The notes: a model not told the origin generated them from the sequence alone. Shown: positions 5,529 to 14,063, counted from the first letter of the stretch. The stretch: 64,000 nt of DNA from Candidatus Bathyarchaeota archaeon (GCA_963832745.1 CAWHVC010000002.1:160001-224000); one strand, 5' to 3'. Made by a program: numbers and translations.

Positions 5529-5756
5529 ATGGAAACATTTTTTGTATTCCTTGGATTCACAATGATTATTGTACTTGTACTTTTTTTACCAGTATTAATT
5601 GAACTTAAGAAACCAAAAGATATTGCACCGCGGAAAATAGTTGATTTCAAAACGGTCCTGTTATTGCAGACTAAAAAAGAAGTGGCGCCCAATAATCAGC
5701 CTTTAAATGGCACTTTGGCTGCCGCGGTTGAATCTTTAACTAACTTGGAAGTTTAA
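5529..5756 (+). CDS. Small single-TM hypothetical protein
   Basis: N-terminal TM then LPVLIELKKPKD; AT-rich TATA-like box upstream. Confidence 0.55.
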   Translation: METFFVFLGFTMIIVLVLFLPVLIELKKPKDIAPRKIVDFKTVLLLQTKKEVAPNNQPLNGTLAAAVESLTNLEV

Positions 5757-6793
5757 CTCTTCTTTAGCAGCAGGGAAGCGTTTTTCCATTGTTCCATAGC
5801 TAATGAAATGTGGCCCGAAGGTGACCCATAAATTGAATAAAACACGTAACAAAGATACGTGCATTGAGTGCAAGTCCTGTACTGCTCACGTAAATCATTG
5901 AATTTTTCACTCTTCCAGTTTTTAGGCAAATCGAAAATTGAGCCTGCAAAAGTGTGATTGTGGCAACCCGCAACTCTGCCCAGATGGTCCACGACTAGAA
6001 AGCTTTGAAGCGCTTTGCAATTCCAAGTTCTTTTTTCTTCAGCGTAGAGGCTTCTTAACGTTTTTAGAAGTTTGTCTGTCATTAAGATTCTTTTGTTGGT
6101 TTTCTTCATTTCTTTTAAAGTGTCGCAGAGTTTAACCATGGCTTCTTTATCGGTTATTATGAATTCGTCATTAGGTTTGCCGATGCGGAACAGTTGGTCA
6201 GGATCATCTGTCATGTCGTATGAGTAAAGGCAATACCAAACAGGGATACCCTTGCTCGTGAAGTAATTAGTGATATCCACGATTTCGTAAAGATTCATTT
6301 GAGAAATCGTTGGAGTAACGCTAACTTTTATTCCCTCTTTCTGCAGGGTTTCAACTGTTTTCATGGCGTTTTTCCATGCACCAGGCACATTTTTTATGTA
6401 ATCCTGTTTTTTCTCATCAAGGCTATCAATAGATAAAGCGACAAAATCAACTTTTCTTAAGAGATCAATTTTTTTTGCCGCCATGCTACCGTTATCATAT
6501 ACTGTAGTTACAAACCGTTGGGTAGCATAATCAATAATTTCTCCAATGTCCTCTCTTAGCAGTGGATCGCCGCCGGACAGAACAAGCTCAACTATGCCCG
6601 CGTCTTTCAGAATGTCCATGCCTTTTTTAATTTCTTCAGTTGAGAGTTCGTTTTTGTCTTGTTCTTTCCATACATTGCAGCCTAAGCATTTGTAATTACA
6701 TTTTCTTGTAATAAGCCATTGTGCATGGTGTGGTTTGCCGTGAACAAGTGAACGTGCTGCTACGTTTGCTGCCTTTTTTACTCCCATAACCAA
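5753..6793 (-). CDS. Radical SAM protein with C-terminal SPASM/twitch-type Cys motif
   Basis: CNYKCLGC, SGGDPLLR, C-terminal C..GC..CTQCTYLC. Confidence 0.92.
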   Translation of the reverse strand: MVMGVKKAANVAARSLVHGKPHHAQWLITRKCNYKCLGCNVWKEQDKNELSTEEIKKGMDILKDAGIVELVLSGGDPLLREDIGEIIDYATQRFVTTVYDNGSMAAKKIDLLRKVDFVALSIDSLDEKKQDYIKNVPGAWKNAMKTVETLQKEGIKVSVTPTISQMNLYEIVDITNYFTSKGIPVWYCLYSYDMTDDPDQLFRIGKPNDEFIITDKEAMVKLCDTLKEMKKTNKRILMTDKLLKTLRSLYAEEKRTWNCKALQSFLVVDHLGRVAGCHNHTFAGSIFDLPKNWKSEKFNDLREQYRTCTQCTYLCYVFYSIYGSPSGHISLAMEQWKNASLLLKKS

Positions 6794-6978
6794 ATAGGGT
6801 CACTAGCCGCTTAAATTTGATATTAACACTTAATCAAATCTGGACTATAAAAACCATTATTAAAGTTCACCTGTTTGCTGTATCTGAATCTCTTCTTTAG
6901 GTGCTCCAACTAAGGCTTTATTCGGCTAAGCCTTATAGGCACAAATGTAAGTGTAAACTGAACGGAAGCTGGGTTCAA

Positions 6979-7710
6979 ATGGTGGATTCGATTGATGTTG
7001 TTCTGCTGACAAAGAACAGTGAGCGGGCGTTAGTCAAGTGTCTAGACTCACTTTACCAGAACGTTCCAGTCCACCAACTGATTGTAGTTGACGGGTACTC
7101 TACCGATGGCACTCTTTCAATAATAGAAACTTATAGCCAGAAACATTACAACGTAAAAGTAATTTTTGATAAAGGTACTCGCGCTTCAGCCCGACAAAAA
7201 GGAATCATGGCCGTGCAAACTGAATGGTTCATGTTCATAGACAGTGACGTCGTTTTATGCCGTGATTGGTTCCAAAAAACCATCAAAAACATTGACGCAG
7301 ATGTTGGGGCAGTTTGGGGGACTGAAGTCTGGTCTACCTTGAAAAACCCCAAAATGCTAAAACTATTCTTGGTTGTTACCCGCAAAATTTTCGAAGTACG
7401 CGGTGGCACACATGACACTTTAATTCGCTCTTCACTTGTTAAAGACATCCAAATACCCGCTGAGCTTCATGTTTTTGAAGATGCATACATAAAAGACCAT
7501 ATAACCCGTAAAGGCTACAAGGTAGTGGCTTGTTATGACCCTTTCTGTATTCATTTTAGACCTGATTCTGTTTGGACTTTAAAAGGCAGTTTAGGTTTAG
7601 TTGCTGAGGCACTACGGTTGGGTAGTCCCCATTTGATTTCGAAGCTGCTTTTGGCTTACGGCTTCTACACTGGCTACTCAGTTTATCAATTTTTTGCAAA
7701 CAACAAATAA
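6979..7710 (+). CDS. Glycosyltransferase family 2
   Basis: VVDGYSTDGT, FIDSD (DxD), FED motif; ATG at 6979 preferred over 6901. Confidence 0.9.
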   Translation: MVDSIDVVLLTKNSERALVKCLDSLYQNVPVHQLIVVDGYSTDGTLSIIETYSQKHYNVKVIFDKGTRASARQKGIMAVQTEWFMFIDSDVVLCRDWFQKTIKNIDADVGAVWGTEVWSTLKNPKMLKLFLVVTRKIFEVRGGTHDTLIRSSLVKDIQIPAELHVFEDAYIKDHITRKGYKVVACYDPFCIHFRPDSVWTLKGSLGLVAEALRLGSPHLISKLLLAYGFYTGYSVYQFFANNK

Positions 7711-7766
7711 AACAGTTGGGAAATAGCTTATTATTTTAATGCCCCTCTATATGCAAGCAATTCGGC

Positions 7767-8543
7767 GTGTTAAATTTGAGTAACTCTCTGGCGCAAATTG
7801 ATGTGGTGCTGCTTACCAAAAACAGCGAGTACCTTCTTGCAAAATGCTTGACCTCGATCTACCAAAACGTGCCAGTTCACAGGCTACTTGTGGTTGATGC
7901 TTACTCCACTGACCGAACTATTGAAATTCTAAAAAAATTCAACCAAAAACACCGCAACATAATAATCGTAAAAACCAATGGCACTCGTGCTCAAGCACGC
8001 GAAACAGGTATTAAACATGTCATCACCGACTTCTTCGCTTTCATAGATAGCGACGTTATACTGTGTAGGGATTGGTTCAAAAAAGCCTTCGCTGAAATGA
8101 AGGATGGTGTCGGTGCCGTGTGGGGTGTAAACATTGATGTAATCCCAAACGTTAAACAAAAATGGTTCTTGCTGTTGGAAAGCATGATTGCACGCCAAGG
8201 CTTCCGTTTACGAGGCGGAACACATGACACGCTTATCCGAAAAAGCGCTTTGGAGGGGTTACATATTCCTGAGGAACTTCATGCTTTTGAGGATGCTTAT
8301 CTTATTCGTTGGGTCGAAAAAAGAGGGTATAAAGCGCTTGTTGGCAGCAGCATCTATTGTTTGCATTATAAGCCGCCGACAAACTGGAGTCCCCAAAACG
8401 CCGTAGACCAAGCAATTGTCGAATTCAAATGTGGCATGCTTCACTCCCACCTTTATTCTTATGCCCTGTTCTATCCAGTGTTCATGTTTTACTGGTTTTT
8501 GCAAGTGCCGCTTAGCGGTTTTGGCGGTCAACTAAAAAAATAG
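7767..8543 (+). CDS. Glycosyltransferase family 2, tandem paralog
   Basis: VVDAYSTDRT, FIDSD, RGGTHDTLIR shared with the upstream GT2. Confidence 0.9.
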   Translation: MLNLSNSLAQIDVVLLTKNSEYLLAKCLTSIYQNVPVHRLLVVDAYSTDRTIEILKKFNQKHRNIIIVKTNGTRAQARETGIKHVITDFFAFIDSDVILCRDWFKKAFAEMKDGVGAVWGVNIDVIPNVKQKWFLLLESMIARQGFRLRGGTHDTLIRKSALEGLHIPEELHAFEDAYLIRWVEKRGYKALVGSSIYCLHYKPPTNWSPQNAVDQAIVEFKCGMLHSHLYSYALFYPVFMFYWFLQVPLSGFGGQLKK

Positions 8544-8707: not shown

Positions 8708-9715
8708 TTACCGTGATAAGGCAGTCCAAAGTTGGTCGGTTACGGGTCTTGGCAGCGTCTGAGGGACGCCCGTCCTTGTTTCAAGGACACGTTTTTCTGG
8801 GTTGCTGTTGAATTCGCCTATGACTGCCGCGTAGATGCCCTGCTCTTTTAAGGCTGAAATGATTTTTTGGGTTGAGTCTGCTTCAGCTGCAATCAGTAAT
8901 GCGCCTGAACTTATGAGTTGCAAAGGATCAATGTCAAAGTGCCGACAGATTTCGGCTGTTTCAGGTTCTACAACAATTTTTGCTTCAAAAATCCTTATAC
9001 CTAAGCCTGCTGCGTCTGCCATTTCGTGCGCTCCGTTAAGGATGCCGCCTTCCGTTGGGTCATGCATCGCGTGCACTCCGCCTGCTCGGTAAGCTGTTAA
9101 GGCGTCTTTGACTACGCTGATTTGATTGTAAAATTCCTTAGCGCTCGCCAGAAACTGCTGGCTAAACACTTTTAACAGCTTTGCTTCTCGGTCTGTGGCT
9201 AAAATAGCAGTGCCTTCAATCCCAGCGCTCTTGGTTAAAATGAGTTTGTCGCCTGCTTTTGCGCCCGCCGCGGTTACGTATTTGCCTTTTTCGGTTAAAC
9301 CCATAATGCAGCAAACCACGATTGGGTTGGTTAAGCCGGGAGTGGATTCACAGTGTCCACCCACAATTGCGATGCCCAACTCTTTGGCTGCCTCTCCCAT
9401 TTGAGTGCTTATGGTTTCAACTATTTTGCTGTCAGAACCTTCAGGCAACATAATGCATGAAAAAATGAATGACGGCTCTACACCGAAAGTTGCCACGTCA
9501 TTAGCGTTAACGTTTACGGCTTCTTGACCGATACGTTCTACTGCACCTGTAATAGGGTCCATGGAGACGATGGCTGATTTGCCGCCGATTTCAAGTACTG
9601 CTCCATCAACACCTGTCCTAGGGCCAAGGATGACTTCTTTGCGGTCTGCCCCCAAATTTTTGAAAACTATGCTTTGCAGGATGTCTATTGGTATTTTTCC
9701 GGGCGGTAGCTTCAT
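8708..9715 (-). CDS. AIR synthase-related (PurM/HypE/ThiL-like) protein
   Basis: GVDGAV, SMDPITG, NANDVAT, IVGGHCE, MHDPTEGGI, ISSGALL motifs. Confidence 0.88.
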   Translation of the reverse strand: MKLPPGKIPIDILQSIVFKNLGADRKEVILGPRTGVDGAVLEIGGKSAIVSMDPITGAVERIGQEAVNVNANDVATFGVEPSFIFSCIMLPEGSDSKIVETISTQMGEAAKELGIAIVGGHCESTPGLTNPIVVCCIMGLTEKGKYVTAAGAKAGDKLILTKSAGIEGTAILATDREAKLLKVFSQQFLASAKEFYNQISVVKDALTAYRAGGVHAMHDPTEGGILNGAHEMADAAGLGIRIFEAKIVVEPETAEICRHFDIDPLQLISSGALLIAAEADSTQKIISALKEQGIYAAVIGEFNSNPEKRVLETRTGVPQTLPRPVTDQLWTALSR

Positions 9716-9729
9716 GCTTGTATCATCTG

Positions 9730-10266
9730 TTAAATCATGCTTTTAAGTTGTGGGAAAACACGGAGTACCGCATACGATAAAGGTACTGCTATTATTACTC
9801 CGACGAACATTTGGAACAGGTTAAACGGGACTTCTGCTAAGGCTGCGCCGAATCCGTAGCCTAAAACGAATTGTTCATAGAGGAAATAGCCGGTAACCAT
9901 TTCTAATCCGCCTACTAGAACGGCGATTGTTGCGCAAATAGCGTCGTTTTTGATGTGTTTTTTGAGTTTTCTGCTTAGCCACCCGACTATTGCGCCTTCT
10001 GTTCCTTTGATTACTAATGTTCCTGGGGCGAAGTAGCCGTATCCAAGGTAAATGTCTGATAGCATTGCTCCTATGCCTCCCGAGAAGGCGCCTACTGTGG
10101 GTCCAAAGATTAATGCTGCTGTGTAGATGATTATTTCTCCGAAGTTGAAGTAGCCGCTTGTAGCTGGGATGGGGAAAGCGAAGATTATTGTTGCTACTGC
10201 GACAAGTGCTGCGAAGACGGCTGTTAATGCTGCTGTTAGTGCTGGGCTTTTGTGTTTTTGTTGCAT
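9730..10266 (-). CDS. ECF transporter S component
   Basis: FAALVAVAT..PIPATSGYFNFGE...GAMLSD...APGTLVIKG, multi-TM. Confidence 0.88.
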   Translation of the reverse strand: MQQKHKSPALTAALTAVFAALVAVATIIFAFPIPATSGYFNFGEIIIYTAALIFGPTVGAFSGGIGAMLSDIYLGYGYFAPGTLVIKGTEGAIVGWLSRKLKKHIKNDAICATIAVLVGGLEMVTGYFLYEQFVLGYGFGAALAEVPFNLFQMFVGVIIAVPLSYAVLRVFPQLKSMI

Positions 10267-10294
10267 GGTTTTTACCTTGGTGTAGGCTGTGACT

Positions 10295-10325
10295 TTAGTA
10301 GTATAGTTGTGGCTATACTATCTAA
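10295..10325. promoter_or_regulatory. Inverted repeat (candidate operator) upstream of the ECF S component
   Basis: ttag-TAGTATAG-ttgtgg-CTATACTA-tctaa, immediately downstream (minus strand) of a gaaaa..tttatta BRE/TATA-like element. Confidence 0.6.
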
Positions 10326-10354
10326 TAAATTTGTTTTCACGCGACCCTTCTATT

Positions 10355-11752
10355 TTACATCAAGAGTTGAATCTCATCAAACGCCGCCAAAACCTTCCTA
10401 CCCCGCTCCGTAATACGGAAAAACCGTTTCCCCGAATCCTCATAACTAACCACCAAACCCTTAGCCTCCAACTCATTAAGATGCTGATACACTGCACCCC
10501 GCGTCATAATCTGACCCAACTGCTTCCATAAATCATAACCATACGAATCCGCCTCACTAAGCACCTTGAGAATCTTCTGCTTCGTACTCACCCTAGGCCC
10601 TAAACCCGCGGCTTTCTGCTTTTTTGTCAACGTCTGCAATACATCTGTAGCTTTAAGGCCGCTGCCCGTGATGAGGCAAACCACTGTGTCTTGAGCGGAG
10701 ATGTTGGTGGTTCTAAGTTTTTGGAGTGCTGCTACTGTGGCAGAACTTGCAGGCTCCGCAAAAACACCCTCCAATTTTGCAACTAACAACTCTGACGCCA
10801 AAATCTCTGGGTCAGATACTGTCAAAGCCAACCCATTTGACTCTTTAATGGCCTTTATCGCCAAGTCACTTTGCAATGGGTCACCAACAAGAATTGCAAG
10901 AGCTCTTGTTGATGTGCTACAGGCTTTCGATGATGTCTCTTCGGTTAGTTTTTTGACTATTGGTGCGCAGCCTTCTGTTTGGACACCAACCATCCGCGGC
11001 AACTTGCCTGTTAATCCGAGCTGTTTGAGTTCTTTAAAGCCCTTCCAAAGCGAGTAAATAGTTCCGCCGCTTCCCATAGAAACAATAATCCAATCCGGAA
11101 CCCCCAACTGTTCAAAAACCTCGTAAGCGATTGTTTTTTGTGCTTCAATTGCGAGCGGGTTGATTTCTGCGGTGGCTTGATACCAACCTGTTTCCTTCGA
11201 TAGCGTAATGGCTTTTTGGATGGCTTCGTCGATTATGTCGCCTGATTCTTCAATAACTGCGTCGTAAGCAATCATCTGCGCCAACTTGCCTACATCAACC
11301 ATTTTGGGGACTAAAACATGGCATTGCAGCCCCGCTTTAGCTGTATACGCCGCAAGTGATGCGCCCATGTTTCCGTTAGTTCCGCAAATTACGGCTTCAA
11401 AGCCTTGATCAATCGCGTTTGAAGTCAAAAAAGCAGCTGCACGGTCACGATAACTGTTTGTGGGATTGCGTGTTTCATCTTTCAAGTAAAGTTCATTGAG
11501 TCCAATGGCTTTAGCAAGCCTTTCAGCTTTGTGCAGTGGAGTTACGCCTTCACCTAAACTGACAATGTGCCTGACAGGCGGAAGCATTGGTTGATACTTC
11601 CAGAATCCTTCAAGCCCCAGCAACTTAAACGCCGACGCCTCTGGCAAATCTGCTGTGTATTCCAGTGTGCCGCCGCATTTTTCGCAGTTACTCCGTAGTG
11701 GTCTAACGGGGTATTCTGTTTGACAGTTGGTGCATTTGAGTGTTGGTTTCAT
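10355..11752 (-). CDS. Threonine synthase-fold protein (PLP Lys replaced by Arg) fused to a C-terminal PadR/ArsR-like wHTH
   Basis: N-terminal Zn ribbon, SLGEGVTPL, NPTNSYRDR (canonical NPTGSFKDR), GVFAEPAS, ITGSGLK; C-terminal YGYDLWK..AVYQHLNELEAKGLV..ITERG. Confidence 0.85.
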   Translation of the reverse strand: MKPTLKCTNCQTEYPVRPLRSNCEKCGGTLEYTADLPEASAFKLLGLEGFWKYQPMLPPVRHIVSLGEGVTPLHKAERLAKAIGLNELYLKDETRNPTNSYRDRAAAFLTSNAIDQGFEAVICGTNGNMGASLAAYTAKAGLQCHVLVPKMVDVGKLAQMIAYDAVIEESGDIIDEAIQKAITLSKETGWYQATAEINPLAIEAQKTIAYEVFEQLGVPDWIIVSMGSGGTIYSLWKGFKELKQLGLTGKLPRMVGVQTEGCAPIVKKLTEETSSKACSTSTRALAILVGDPLQSDLAIKAIKESNGLALTVSDPEILASELLVAKLEGVFAEPASSATVAALQKLRTTNISAQDTVVCLITGSGLKATDVLQTLTKKQKAAGLGPRVSTKQKILKVLSEADSYGYDLWKQLGQIMTRGAVYQHLNELEAKGLVVSYEDSGKRFFRITERGRKVLAAFDEIQLLM

Positions 11753-11802
11753 CCTTTGCTATTTGCTTAAACGGGCTTTTTATGTTATGCCTTGAATCGG
11801 GT

Positions 11803-11826
11803 TGTAGTTGCGGTTTTGCAATCACA
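11803..11826 (+). promoter_or_regulatory. Palindromic regulon site upstream of catalase
   Basis: TGTAGTTG-cggttttg-CAATCACA, 4 bp, then tttaaaaa. Confidence 0.75.
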
Positions 11827-11894
11827 AATTTTTAAAAATATAGTTTGGTCTAAACAGCTTGAGTTTCTTTGGAATTTTTGAATAAAATTTTGAG

Positions 11895-14063
11895 TTGATT
11901 ATTTTGGAAAAAAATGAAAAGAAATCTCAATCAAAAACAATTGATAATCTTGAATCCTACAGAGTTGAATCCAAAAACCAGCAATTAACAACCAATACAG
12001 GCGTAAAAATTAATGACACCGATAACTCACTGCGAGCGGGTCCTCGTGGACCGACGCTTTTGGAAGATTTCCATTTTAGAGAAAAACTGACGCATTTCGA
12101 CCATGAACGCATACCTGAAAGAGTTGTCCACGCAAGAGGCTCAGGCGCGCATGGCTACTTCCAAGTTTACAAATCAATGAATAAATATACTAAAGCAAAG
12201 TTTCTGCAAGACCCCGAAACAAAAACGCCCGTTTTCGTTCGTTTTTCAACTGTTGCTGGTTCTCGAGGTTCAGCGGACACTGTGCGCGATGTCCGAGGTT
12301 TTGCCACACGATTCTATACTGAGGACGGAAATTATGACTTAGTTGGAAACAACATCCCCATCTTCTTTATACAAGATGCTATTAAATTTCCCGACTTAAT
12401 CCATGCTGTTAAGCCTGAACAGGATAACGAGATTCCTCAAGCAGCCACTGCGCATAACACTTTTTGGGATTTTGTGGCTAATAACCCTGAAATTGCTCAC
12501 ATGATTATGTGGGCTATGTCTGACCGGGCGCTTCCCCGAAGTTTTCGTATGATGGATGGTTTTGGAGTAAACACTTACCGCTTTGTTAACGAAGAGGGTA
12601 AATCGTGTTTTGTAAAGTTCCATTGGCGTGCAATGCTTGGTGCGCATTCGTTGGCATGGGATGAAGCCCAGAAAATTGCTGGTAAAGACCCTGACTTTAA
12701 TCGTCGTGATCTTTGGGAAGCTATTGAGATGGGTGATTTTCCTGAATACGAGTTTTCTGTGCAGATTATTGATGAGGCGGATGCGGAAAAGTTTGATTTT
12801 GATATTTTGGATGCTACAAAGATTTGGCCTGAAGAACTGGTGCCCTTGCAGCCTGTTGGTAAGATGGTTTTGAACCGTAATCCTGACAATTTTTTTGCGG
12901 AAACTGAGCAGGTGGCTTTTTGTCCTGCGAATGTTGTTCCGGGTATTGATGTTAGTGATGATCCGTTGTTGCAGGGTAGATTGTTTTCGTATTTTGATAC
13001 GCAGCTTACACGTTTGGGTGGGCCGAATTTTAATGAGATTCCTATTAACAAGCCGGTGGTGCCGGTTGTTAATAATCAACGTGATGGTTTTCATCAAATG
13101 AATATCAATAAGGGTTCAGTGGCGTATTACCCTAACTCTCTTAATGATAATTATCCTCGGGCTGGATTGGACTCCAAGGCGGGTTACGTGCATTACCCTG
13201 AAAGGGTGCAAGGGGATAAGGTGCGGGTTAGGAGCGAGACTTTTCAAGAGCATTTTGGTCAGGCGATTTTGTTCTGGAACAGCATGACGGAACCCGAAAA
13301 ATATCATATTATCAAGGCGTTTCATTTTGAAGTTGGAAAAGTTACTGATATGGTTACGCGCCAAAAAATTGTTGATATGTTTAACAATGTGGATAATGAA
13401 CTTGCTAAAGCTATCGCGTTAGGTGTGGGTGCTAATCCGCCAAAACCTGTTGAACGCCATATGCCTAAGGTTTTGGTGTCTAAGGCTTTGTCGCAGGATA
13501 ATCCGCAACGTCGCAGCGCTAAAACCCGTAAAGTAGCAATTTTTATGATGGACGGGTTTAATGATGAAGAGTTAATGTTGGTTAAGGATTCTTTAACGGC
13601 GGCGGGGGTTCATGTTACGGTGATTTCGCAGTACTTGAGTCCAATTAAAAGTTTAAACGGCAAACAATTTGTTCCTGACAGCAACTTTGTTGGCGCTGCA
13701 AGTTCAGTTCTTTTTGACGCAATTTATATTCCGGGTGGTGAGGCAAGCATTGACGCTTTGGCGCATCAAATGTTTGTGTTGGAGTTTCTAAATGAAGCTT
13801 ATAAGCATTGTAAGGCGATTGCGGCTTCAAGTGAAGGCATCGGGTTATTGCAGCAAACGGTTAGTGAGGCTAAACTTGCATTTTCAAATGCTGTGGTGTC
13901 GGATAAGGGTGTGGTTACTTGTATGGGTGCGCCGACTGAAGAGTTTACTGGGGCTTTTTTGGATGCGATTGCTAAGCATCGGCATTGGGTGCGGGAGAAA
14001 ACCGAGGATGTTCCGGTTGAGCTTCAGGCTGTGCTTGGTGAATGGTTAACTAAAGAGCAGTAA
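11895..14063 (+). CDS. katE: Large-subunit catalase HPII (clade 2) with C-terminal DJ-1/PfpI-like domain
   Basis: HFDHERIPERVVHARG, RFSTVAG, DLVGNN, LQGRLFSY heme-ligand motif; C-terminal RKVAI...FDAIYIPGG...AYKHCKAI. Confidence 0.97.
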   Translation: MIILEKNEKKSQSKTIDNLESYRVESKNQQLTTNTGVKINDTDNSLRAGPRGPTLLEDFHFREKLTHFDHERIPERVVHARGSGAHGYFQVYKSMNKYTKAKFLQDPETKTPVFVRFSTVAGSRGSADTVRDVRGFATRFYTEDGNYDLVGNNIPIFFIQDAIKFPDLIHAVKPEQDNEIPQAATAHNTFWDFVANNPEIAHMIMWAMSDRALPRSFRMMDGFGVNTYRFVNEEGKSCFVKFHWRAMLGAHSLAWDEAQKIAGKDPDFNRRDLWEAIEMGDFPEYEFSVQIIDEADAEKFDFDILDATKIWPEELVPLQPVGKMVLNRNPDNFFAETEQVAFCPANVVPGIDVSDDPLLQGRLFSYFDTQLTRLGGPNFNEIPINKPVVPVVNNQRDGFHQMNINKGSVAYYPNSLNDNYPRAGLDSKAGYVHYPERVQGDKVRVRSETFQEHFGQAILFWNSMTEPEKYHIIKAFHFEVGKVTDMVTRQKIVDMFNNVDNELAKAIALGVGANPPKPVERHMPKVLVSKALSQDNPQRRSAKTRKVAIFMMDGFNDEELMLVKDSLTAAGVHVTVISQYLSPIKSLNGKQFVPDSNFVGAASSVLFDAIYIPGGEASIDALAHQMFVLEFLNEAYKHCKAIAASSEGIGLLQQTVSEAKLAFSNAVVSDKGVVTCMGAPTEEFTGAFLDAIAKHRHWVREKTEDVPVELQAVLGEWLTKEQ

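Follow-up and report, generated by a model that had tools for sequence, protein, structure and literature searches.

Here, we examined a locus of three genes arranged head to tail on the minus strand (positions 8708–11752) of a 64,000-nt stretch of DNA from Candidatus Bathyarchaeota archaeon (GCA_963832745.1, CAWHVC010000002.1:160001–224000). The whole stretch is referred to as the window, and positions in it are counted along its full length; the genome that it comes from (3.02 Mb, 99% complete) was designated G000. The first gene encodes a 465-aa protein in which a threonine synthase (ThrC) fold is joined to a PadR-type winged helix-turn-helix (wHTH) domain, the second a 178-aa S component of an energy-coupling factor (ECF) transporter, and the third a 335-aa protein of the PurM/AIRS superfamily (Table 1). 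The 465-aa protein, called the regulator below, is almost certainly a catalytically dead derivative of ThrC, and very probably controls transcription of the S-component operon as a locally acting factor. Sequence comparison further suggests that it is probably a repressor of vitamin B6 uptake that senses pyridoxal 5'-phosphate (PLP) or another form of B6, an archaeal analogue of the bacterial regulator PdxR. The original prediction, made by a model from the window sequence alone, had proposed a pseudoenzyme sensor in control of a vitamin uptake-and-phosphorylation module. This reading gained support from the loss of the Schiff-base lysine together with the presence of the wHTH, from a separate thrC gene, from the conserved gene neighbourhood, and from a palindrome in front of the S-component gene, whereas the ligand, the DNA binding, and the kinase role are still predictions.

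The ThrC-like and DNA-binding parts of the regulator were both recognized in Pfam searches: the PALP domain (residues 64–363) scored 249 bits and the PadR-family wHTH domain (PF03551, residues 394–456) scored 45.4 bits (E-value 7.9e−12, cut-off 27), in agreement with the earlier reading that the fold motifs are otherwise intact and that a complete wHTH is fused at the C-terminus. The threonine synthase model TIGR00260 matched at 206.8 bits, above its cut-off of 167.1, and the model NF004170 (PRK05638, also named “threonine synthase,” 442 positions) matched residues 5–458 over profile positions 2–441 at 398.7 bits, against a curated cut-off of 421. A structure predicted by AlphaFold2 from a 45-sequence alignment had a mean pLDDT of 90.1, with a ThrC-like body (residues 1–373), a putatively disordered linker, and a wHTH (residues 386–464) of three helices and a beta-hairpin wing (pLDDT of approximately 90). 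When this model was compared with the PDB by Foldseek, the best matches were the threonine synthases 2d1f, 6nmx, 2zsj, 6cgq, and 1v7c (TM score of 0.82–0.88 on target length). The regulator shares with these enzymes, as with the TIGR00260 family, the fold and nearly all conserved positions, with 33–40% identity in the Foldseek alignments; it differs from them in its replaced lysine, its added wHTH, its location outside a thrB/hom context, and its placement in a separate clade. The N-terminal four-cysteine (Cys4) motif of the regulator, whose CxxC...CxxC pattern is that of a putative zinc ribbon, is present in the canonical ThrC of G000 as well, and its cysteines are 85–95% conserved in the canonical and fused groups alike.

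At the site of the Schiff-base lysine, the motif NPTGSFKDR of threonine synthases reads NPTNSYRDR in the regulator (aat ccc aca aac agt tat cgt gac cgt, positions 11467–11441). Arg102, encoded by CGT, aligned with the K of this motif in the solved threonine synthases 2zsj, 2d1f, and 6cgq (phmmer), which confirmed the substitution first noticed from the sequence alone. Because Arg is shared by 119 of 120 close homologues (72–100% identity, all with PadR and PALP domains; the remaining one was unmatched by the motif expression), it is neither an error nor a chance change, and the earlier argument against a sequencing error was borne out. In fold-type II enzymes, the Schiff-base lysine doubles as the catalytic base. 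Because the lysine is replaced by Arg, the regulator should be unable to form an internal Schiff base or to catalyze the reaction.

The loss of the lysine extends across the family. In a HMMER search over 1.84 billion representatives, residues were counted in the 150 top matches, of which 73 carried both a wHTH and the motif. A residue other than Lys was found in 71 of these 73 (L 19, R 16, I 14, V 6, T 5, M 4, F 3, K 2, and S, Y, N, and A 1 each), whereas 61 of the 66 motif-bearing representatives without a wHTH had K, the others having R (4; three fragments and one partly aligned) or V (1). It had been asked whether a K-to-R change always accompanies the wHTH; the loss of lysine does track the wHTH, but R is not general, since many different residues occupy the site and a few members keep K. 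We also compared 71 fused proteins with 58 canonical ThrCs at the 56 query positions that are at least 85% conserved in the canonical set. The Lys site was the only one of these positions that was fully lost in the fused proteins (commonest residue L, 27%). Positions 125, 252, 282, and 284 were partly relaxed; positions 1, 113, and 220 fell slightly below the 70% line with the residue unchanged; and the remaining positions, among them those of the Cys4 motif, NPT.SF.DR, GN, the loop rich in glycine, and TG.G.K, were kept. Pocket positions that are kept while the lysine is lost are the signature of a binding pocket under selection in a protein that has given up catalysis.

A separate, intact thrC, for which a search had been recommended with the original prediction, was found in G000. 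Its product (416 aa, contig C3, 362.8 bits) has the motifs NPTGSFKDR, VGNAGN, and TGHGLKD, and the gene lies between ORFs resembling homoserine kinase (thrB) and homoserine dehydrogenase (hom), neighbours that were identified by eye, on a different contig from the regulator. The 465-aa protein is therefore not the threonine synthase of G000. In a phylum sample of 201 genomes, 30 loci with full-length matches to NF004170 were kept, and Arg occupied the lysine site in 29 of the 29 that were readable (L013 gave no motif match), indicating that NF004170 describes the regulator family and that its name looks wrong. Public records likewise name close homologues “threonine synthase,” and both appear to mislabel a family of regulators. 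Such misannotation can make genomes seem to have two thrC genes, and it hides auxotrophy for B6 among uncultured archaea of the Bathyarchaeia and Asgard groups.

A FastTree phylogeny of 168 ThrC domains (residues 45–372), read as an unrooted split, placed all 94 wHTH proteins on one side of a single split with a support of 0.93 (0.98 at the clade node). Of the proteins in which no wHTH was detected, only two joined them, a partial one and P0213. The wHTH-fused ThrC proteins thus form one monophyletic archaeal family of single origin. Within it are two clades, a “hydrophobic” clade of 59 proteins (with L, I, V, M, T, or F at the lysine site) and an “Arg” clade of 37 that includes the window protein. 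The Arg clade holds two nested Lys-bearing subclades, which on an unrooted tree represent either retention or reversion. Among the Lys-keeping members nested there are Asgard loci (Promethearchaeota and Hermodarchaeota) in which the gene is convergent to the S-component gene. In named records, the family occurred in Bathyarchaeia, Desulfurococcales, Nitrososphaerota, Methanomethylicota, Thermococcus, and Asgard archaea (Promethearchaeota, Hermodarchaeota, Thorarchaeota, and Jordarchaeia).

The regulator gene and the S-component gene are linked far beyond the window. Two sets of loci were surveyed. The sampled set consisted of 60 stretches of 15–17 kb around regulator genes, in which crude ORF calls were clustered and the regulator was present in 58 rows, including the window; the named archaeal set (n = 78) included 34 loci with a wHTH-bearing regulator and 40 without a detected wHTH, the latter made up of 38 loci of canonical thrC plus two genes of the Arg type truncated at the ends of contigs. 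The S-component family adjoined or lay near the regulator in 31 of the 58 sampled Thermoproteota loci, being located either immediately downstream in the same orientation or upstream and divergent. Among the named loci, it lay within four genes of the regulator in 25 of 34, including loci of Asgard archaea, Nitrososphaerota, and Desulfurococcales, and near none of the 40 without a detected wHTH. The neighbourhood on which the original prediction depended is thus conserved. In Desulfurococcales-like loci, the S-component gene is followed by a duplicated ABC ATPase and a 226–248-aa protein without a Pfam match, presumably EcfT; with the regulator gene at its head, such a locus would then make up an entire operon for an ECF transporter. 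In G000, the S component is single-copy, and an EcfT-EcfA-EcfA' module is encoded elsewhere (C4:31631–34082; a CbiQ/EcfT-family gene and two adjacent ABC ATPase genes). The S component of the window is short; in most of its relatives, approximately 70 aa are inserted after the fourth predicted helix and before the fifth, and the proteins of one subgroup are extended at the N-terminus by approximately 130 aa.

A perfect 22-bp palindrome lies between the regulator stop codon and the S-component start, inside the site (10295–10325) that had been flagged earlier for DNA-binding assays (Table 1). It was the only match in the window at two or fewer mismatches (0.23 expected). Across the 3.02 Mb of G000, a search returned one perfect palindrome, none with one mismatch, and four with two mismatches in unrelated contexts; because there is no second good copy in the genome, the regulon appears to be local rather than global. 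The palindrome is conserved in the family. We surveyed 52 pairs of regulator and S-component genes over 200 nt upstream of the S-component gene, with random windows from the same loci as controls. Of the 27 Arg-type pairs, 20 had the palindrome at two or fewer mismatches in this region (a perfect copy in 10, one mismatch in 7, and two in 3), compared with 7 of 1,040 random windows. Desulfurococcales-like loci had a variant of this candidate operator, TCTTAAAG-N6-CTTTAATA. In the non-Arg clades, a sister palindrome, TATATARG-N6-CYTATATA, was found at the regulator start or in the divergent spacer in 33 of 50 loci, compared with 33 of 1,000 random windows, roughly as many as overlap with the true site would yield. 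In L134, a Lys-type Asgard locus, the sister palindrome is present in perfect form 46 nt in front of the S-component gene; L135 has it with a single mismatch. The usual spot at which archaeal repressors block a promoter is just after the TATA box, and the position of the palindrome behind the TATA-like TTTATTA would fit promoter blocking of this kind. In the 142-nt spacer upstream of the regulator gene (11753–11894), the window search found no copy of the palindrome; autoregulation of the Arg-type regulator, which was also considered, is thus unsupported.

The identity of the S component points to vitamin B6. As had been noted from the sequence, an ECF S component and an AIR-synthase-like protein follow the regulator on the same strand; the former matched PF07155 at 124 bits, and the latter had the AIRS_N and AIRS_C domains. 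The only PDB relative of the S component with an E-value below 0.001 was HmpT (4HZU chain S; E-value 1e−19, 74 bits). HmpT was originally taken for a transporter of hydroxymethylpyrimidine (HMP), but mass spectrometry together with simulation showed that it contains pyridoxamine (PMC4860826). PdxU and PdxU2/HmpT (COG4720, PF07155) are among only three characterized prokaryotic B6 transporters, as listed in a PLP-pathway survey (PMC9997740). Of the six conserved pocket residues reported for HmpT (PMC4860826), four are identical in the S component in an ungapped alignment: E41, Y120, N140, and Q143 correspond to E44, Y127, N149, and Q152, respectively. The other two are changed, with K87 in place of H84 and E90 in place of Q87. 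The window S component thus resembles HmpT/PdxU2 and PdxU in family and HmpT in four of the six pocket residues; it differs in being archaeal and in the other two residues, and its B6 substrate is a prediction.

Further links to B6 were found in the surroundings of the family and in the gene content of G000. Five genomes, all from a single genus, have the regulator gene divergent to pdxS-pdxT (SOR_SNZ 337 bits, SNO 185 bits), with a short spacer (approximately 60 nt in L064) inside which the sister palindrome lies; all five of these loci have it. In L104, from another family, pdxS-pdxT follows an orthologue of the PurM-like gene in the same orientation, and in L105 the pair of S-component and PurM-like genes lies 3 kb from pdxS-pdxT. 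PdxS was detected in 91–92 of the 201 sampled genomes, and in 10 of the 66 in which the regulator was verified versus 81 of the 135 others, a trend rather than a test because related genomes in such presence/absence counts are not mutually independent. In G000, searches for PdxS, PdxT, and PdxJ gave no match (control genomes matched as expected), nor did one for the PdxK/PdxY/ThiD kinase family PF08543, although the control search found 14 of 14 known genomes. The earlier suggestion of a B6 vitamer was therefore strengthened by the kinship with HmpT/PdxU2, by the adjacency to pdxS-pdxT, and by the missing PLP synthesis and kinase genes, and both the signal of the regulator and the cargo of the S component are probably vitamin B6.

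These observations suggest the following scheme. The ThrC fold of the regulator, which keeps its cofactor and substrate pocket, would bind PLP, a related form of B6, or a PLP adduct reversibly. Through the PadR wHTH, a regulator dimer would bind the palindrome just downstream of the TATA-like box, so that the two downstream genes would be repressed when B6 is sufficient and released when PLP falls. The S component would then import a B6 vitamer with the shared EcfAA'T module encoded elsewhere, and the PurM-fold enzyme, using ATP, might phosphorylate the imported vitamer.

The last step of this scheme is the most tentative. The PurM-like gene starts 14 nt past the stop codon of the S-component gene, and its product resembles HypE, ThiL, SelD, and PurM in having both AIRS domains, with HypE as the best family and PDB match (2z1e, E-value 1.4e−24). 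It differs from them in that it falls under every curated NCBIfam cut-off (hypE, 126.1 versus 251.6; thiL, 91.3 versus 184.2; selD, 79.6 versus 125; purM, 35.4 versus 236), and its sequence ends in ...LWTALSR, lacking the C-terminal cysteine that is essential in HypE. G000 encodes a separate true ThiL (254 bits, cut-off 184), HypE (350 bits), SelD, and PurM. Orthologues of the PurM-like gene adjoined the regulator and the S component in 8 of the 58 sampled and 9 of the 34 named loci, and they also followed an S-component gene without a fused regulator in L112 and L113. From this gene linkage, it is possible, although doubtful, that the PurM-like enzyme is a B6 vitamer kinase filling the gap left by the absent PdxK; since it is unrelated in fold to PF08543, any such role would be a non-orthologous replacement. 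Alternative B6 kinases are still to be found, as stated in the PLP-pathway survey (PMC9997740).

Several variants of this gene neighbourhood were observed. In L106 (5870–7344), L107 (5912–7482), and L108 (6433–7844), all from one family, a stand-alone PadR-like protein of 140–192 aa, kin to the regulator tail, directly precedes the PurM-like orthologue, and might represent this mode of control in split form. In L096 (7446–9503) and L097 (3587–5398), a 239–313-aa protein with a ThiN domain (residues 141–304) behind 140 unassigned N-terminal residues is encoded directly upstream of the PurM-like orthologue, by the S component and the regulator. G000 itself has a second uncharacterized PurM-like paralogue (C5:258139–259140; L109:7139–8140) of 333 aa, which is 32% identical to that of the window and lies below the ThiL, HypE, and SelD cut-offs, with a 119-aa PadR-like ORF approximately 3 kb away.

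A number of points weigh against a B6-sensing repressor. Its ligand, its action as a repressor, its binding to DNA, the substrate of the transporter, and the kinase activity of the PurM-like protein were all inferred from comparisons of sequences. Two of the six HmpT pocket residues differ in the S component, and the substrate of HmpT was itself assigned by mass spectrometry plus simulation (PMC4860826). The five genomes with an adjacent pdxS-pdxT represent one evolutionary event because they belong to one genus, beyond which L104 and L105 add only two more links, and the distribution of PdxS relative to the regulator is a trend among relatives. Three other species in the genus of the window organism (G077, G169, and G190) have no fused regulator and keep the PurM-like orthologue at a high score, which implies that the system is dispensable or replaceable. 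Some wHTH-bearing members keep Lys (NPTNSFKDR; L129, L130, L134–L136, L139, P0122, and P0124). The PurM-like family is widely distributed and is found in genomes with PdxS too; its profile matched in 145 of 201 genomes at an E-value of 1e−40, an upper bound that includes ThiL-like paralogues beside ThiDN. We know of no alcohol kinase in the PurM superfamily. The ThiN-domain gene of L096 and L097 is unexplained by a function in B6 uptake. Finally, positions conserved in ThrC outside the PLP site are also kept, and the ligand could therefore be a PLP-amino-acid adduct or a metabolite of the threonine pathway.

These points leave room for other explanations of the locus. It is rather unlikely that the regulator controls the S-component operon with a ligand and a transported substrate that are neither B6 nor threonine intermediates but some other micronutrient. 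S components of PF07155/COG4720 do carry varied substrates, for example riboflavin and B6 (Pfam name; PMC9997740), the identity to HmpT is modest (74 bits), and the PurM-like protein is uncharacterized; however, the PLP fold of the sensor, HmpT as the nearest solved relative, the pdxS-pdxT linkages, and the absence of PLP synthesis genes are all clues to B6. A sensor of the threonine pathway, in which the ThrC domain would respond to O-phosphohomoserine or threonine (with or without PLP) to control threonine metabolism while the transporter imports a related compound, is distinctly unlikely. The descent from ThrC and the retention of nearly all ThrC-conserved positions, beyond those expected for PLP, would suit it, and canonical thrC was found divergent to or near the regulator in eight Bathyarchaeia loci (L039, L044, L042, L050, L123, L125, L126, and L128), which also counts against B6. 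Nevertheless, this adjacency, seen in one order, may be a remnant of gene duplication; the partner conserved across phyla is the ECF S component and not thrC, the thrC of G000 is on another contig while the sole perfect operator fronts the S-component gene, and the pdxS-pdxT links would be left unexplained.

Salvage of thiamine precursors, with the S component importing HMP and the PurM-like protein acting like ThiL or replacing ThiD, is highly improbable. ThiL belongs to the PurM superfamily, and the thiL model gave the PurM-like protein a score of 91 bits; in L096 and L097, the PurM-like orthologue follows a gene with a ThiN domain, and G000 has no ThiD. The first assignment of HmpT as an HMP transporter would agree with such a module, but the pyridoxamine that it was reported to bind (both PMC4860826) and the pdxS-pdxT linkages point to B6. 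Furthermore, no match to ThiC, ThiN, or ThiE was found in G000, which argues against HMP salvage because imported HMP would be unusable, and the true ThiL is encoded elsewhere in the genome. It is extremely unlikely that the regulator is a still-active or bifunctional enzyme, performing a PLP reaction without the lysine or through free PLP-substrate aldimines, with the wHTH merely adding autoregulation: the strong purifying selection on the pocket, the relatives with a wHTH that keep Lys, and the TIGR00260 score above cut-off agree with this, but the missing lysine is also the catalytic base of fold-type II enzymes, a canonical thrC is present in G000, and the variety of residues at the site (R, L, I, V, M, T, F, S, Y, N, and A) fits a single catalytic role poorly.

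If a PLP-sensing repressor is indeed encoded here, it has parallels among known regulators. PdxR regulates genes for B6 and is typically encoded divergently from pdxS-pdxT, and the MocR regulators keep their lysine. In archaea, the thiamine regulator ThiR consists of an inactive ThiN enzyme domain and an HTH; as is proposed for the window protein, it uses a vitamin-pathway enzyme domain without catalysis as the ligand sensor of a local repressor, although the fold and the vitamin differ. The regulator resembles MocR/PdxR in using a PLP-enzyme fold as the sensor of a wHTH factor and, in the five genomes described above, in being divergent to pdxS-pdxT. It differs from these bacterial proteins, in which a GntR wHTH at the N-terminus is combined with an aminotransferase domain of fold-type I, in being archaeal, in joining a fold-type II PALP domain to a C-terminal PadR domain, and in usually lacking the lysine. 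The regulator is thus an analogue of MocR/PdxR and not a member of that family, whose members are described as transcription factors that bind PLP and control PLP, GABA, and taurine genes (PMC5320631).

An enzyme fold turned sensor is already known from MocR/PdxR, but the ThrC/PadR version was found in none of the papers searched: our literature search returned no paper on a ThrC-wHTH regulator or on any archaeal B6 regulator, and searches on archaeal pyridoxal kinase and on what the active-site residues of ThrC do returned nothing usable; the lysine is thus the only residue to which an individual role is given here. Archaeal B6 regulation and salvage are essentially unstudied, and a recent PLP-pathway survey left regulators and transporters aside (PMC9997740). 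The locus supplies three candidates that can be tested directly, one each for a regulator, transporter, and kinase, together with a defined 22-bp DNA site. If the proposed function is correct, the regulator would be a second, independent transcription factor derived from a PLP enzyme, differing from MocR/PdxR in fold, DNA-binding domain, and domain of life, and a reversible, non-covalent PLP sensor of this type might be useful as a biosensor scaffold. More speculatively, the family could mark a pan-archaeal B6 regulon of three undescribed parts, namely a Lys-less ThrC-PadR sensor of PLP, a PdxU2-like ECF importer, and a PurM-fold alternative B6 kinase, where PdxS/T/J and PdxK/ThiD are lacking. 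On that speculative view, the regulator might be the first transcription factor with a fold-type II PLP domain and the first B6 regulator to be proposed for archaea.

Table 1. Features of the predicted regulator/S-component/PurM-like locus in the window
Feature	Position (nt)	Strand	Basis
Regulator gene: ThrC-fold pseudoenzyme, linker, and PadR-type wHTH (465 aa)	10355–11752	−	ORF, Pfam, NF004170, AlphaFold2, Foldseek
N-terminal four-cysteine, zinc-ribbon-like motif (C7, C10, C23, C26)	11675–11734	−	Cysteine conservation
NPTNSYRDR motif; Arg102 codon CGT (11447–11449) at Schiff-base lysine site	11441–11467	−	Sequence, alignment
Predicted disordered linker (residues 374–387)	10592–10633	−	pLDDT <50
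PadR-family wHTH (residues 394–456)	10385–10573	−	PF03551
TTTATTA, possible TATA box 3 nt upstream of palindrome	10323–10329	−	Read from sequence; promoter role predicted
Candidate operator, perfect 22-bp palindrome TAGTATAG-CCACAA-CTATACTA, 32 nt upstream of S-component ATG	10299–10320		Sequence search
ECF transporter S component, PdxU/PdxU2(HmpT) family (COG4720/PF07155), short form (178 aa)	9730–10266	−	PF07155, PDB match
PurM/AIRS-superfamily protein, HypE-like paralogue without C-terminal Cys (335 aa)	8708–9715	−	AIRS_N and AIRS_C (Pfam)

In genus g24 of the sample (e.g., G079, G171, G031, and G087), many matches to the wHTH tail were flagged with one in-frame TAA or TAG, reflecting either alignment overruns or broken genes. 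Outside the three genes, downstream of the PurM-like gene, the window has a radical SAM/SPASM gene (5753–6793, minus strand) and tandem family-2 glycosyltransferase genes (6901–7710 and 7767–8543, plus strand), and this segment (5753–8543) is syntenic in two related genomes (L046 and L049). Divergent to the regulator gene, on the plus strand (11895–14063), is a 722-aa ORF whose translation, judged by eye, resembles a large-subunit catalase, which is unusual enough for a Bathyarchaeon to be recorded here.

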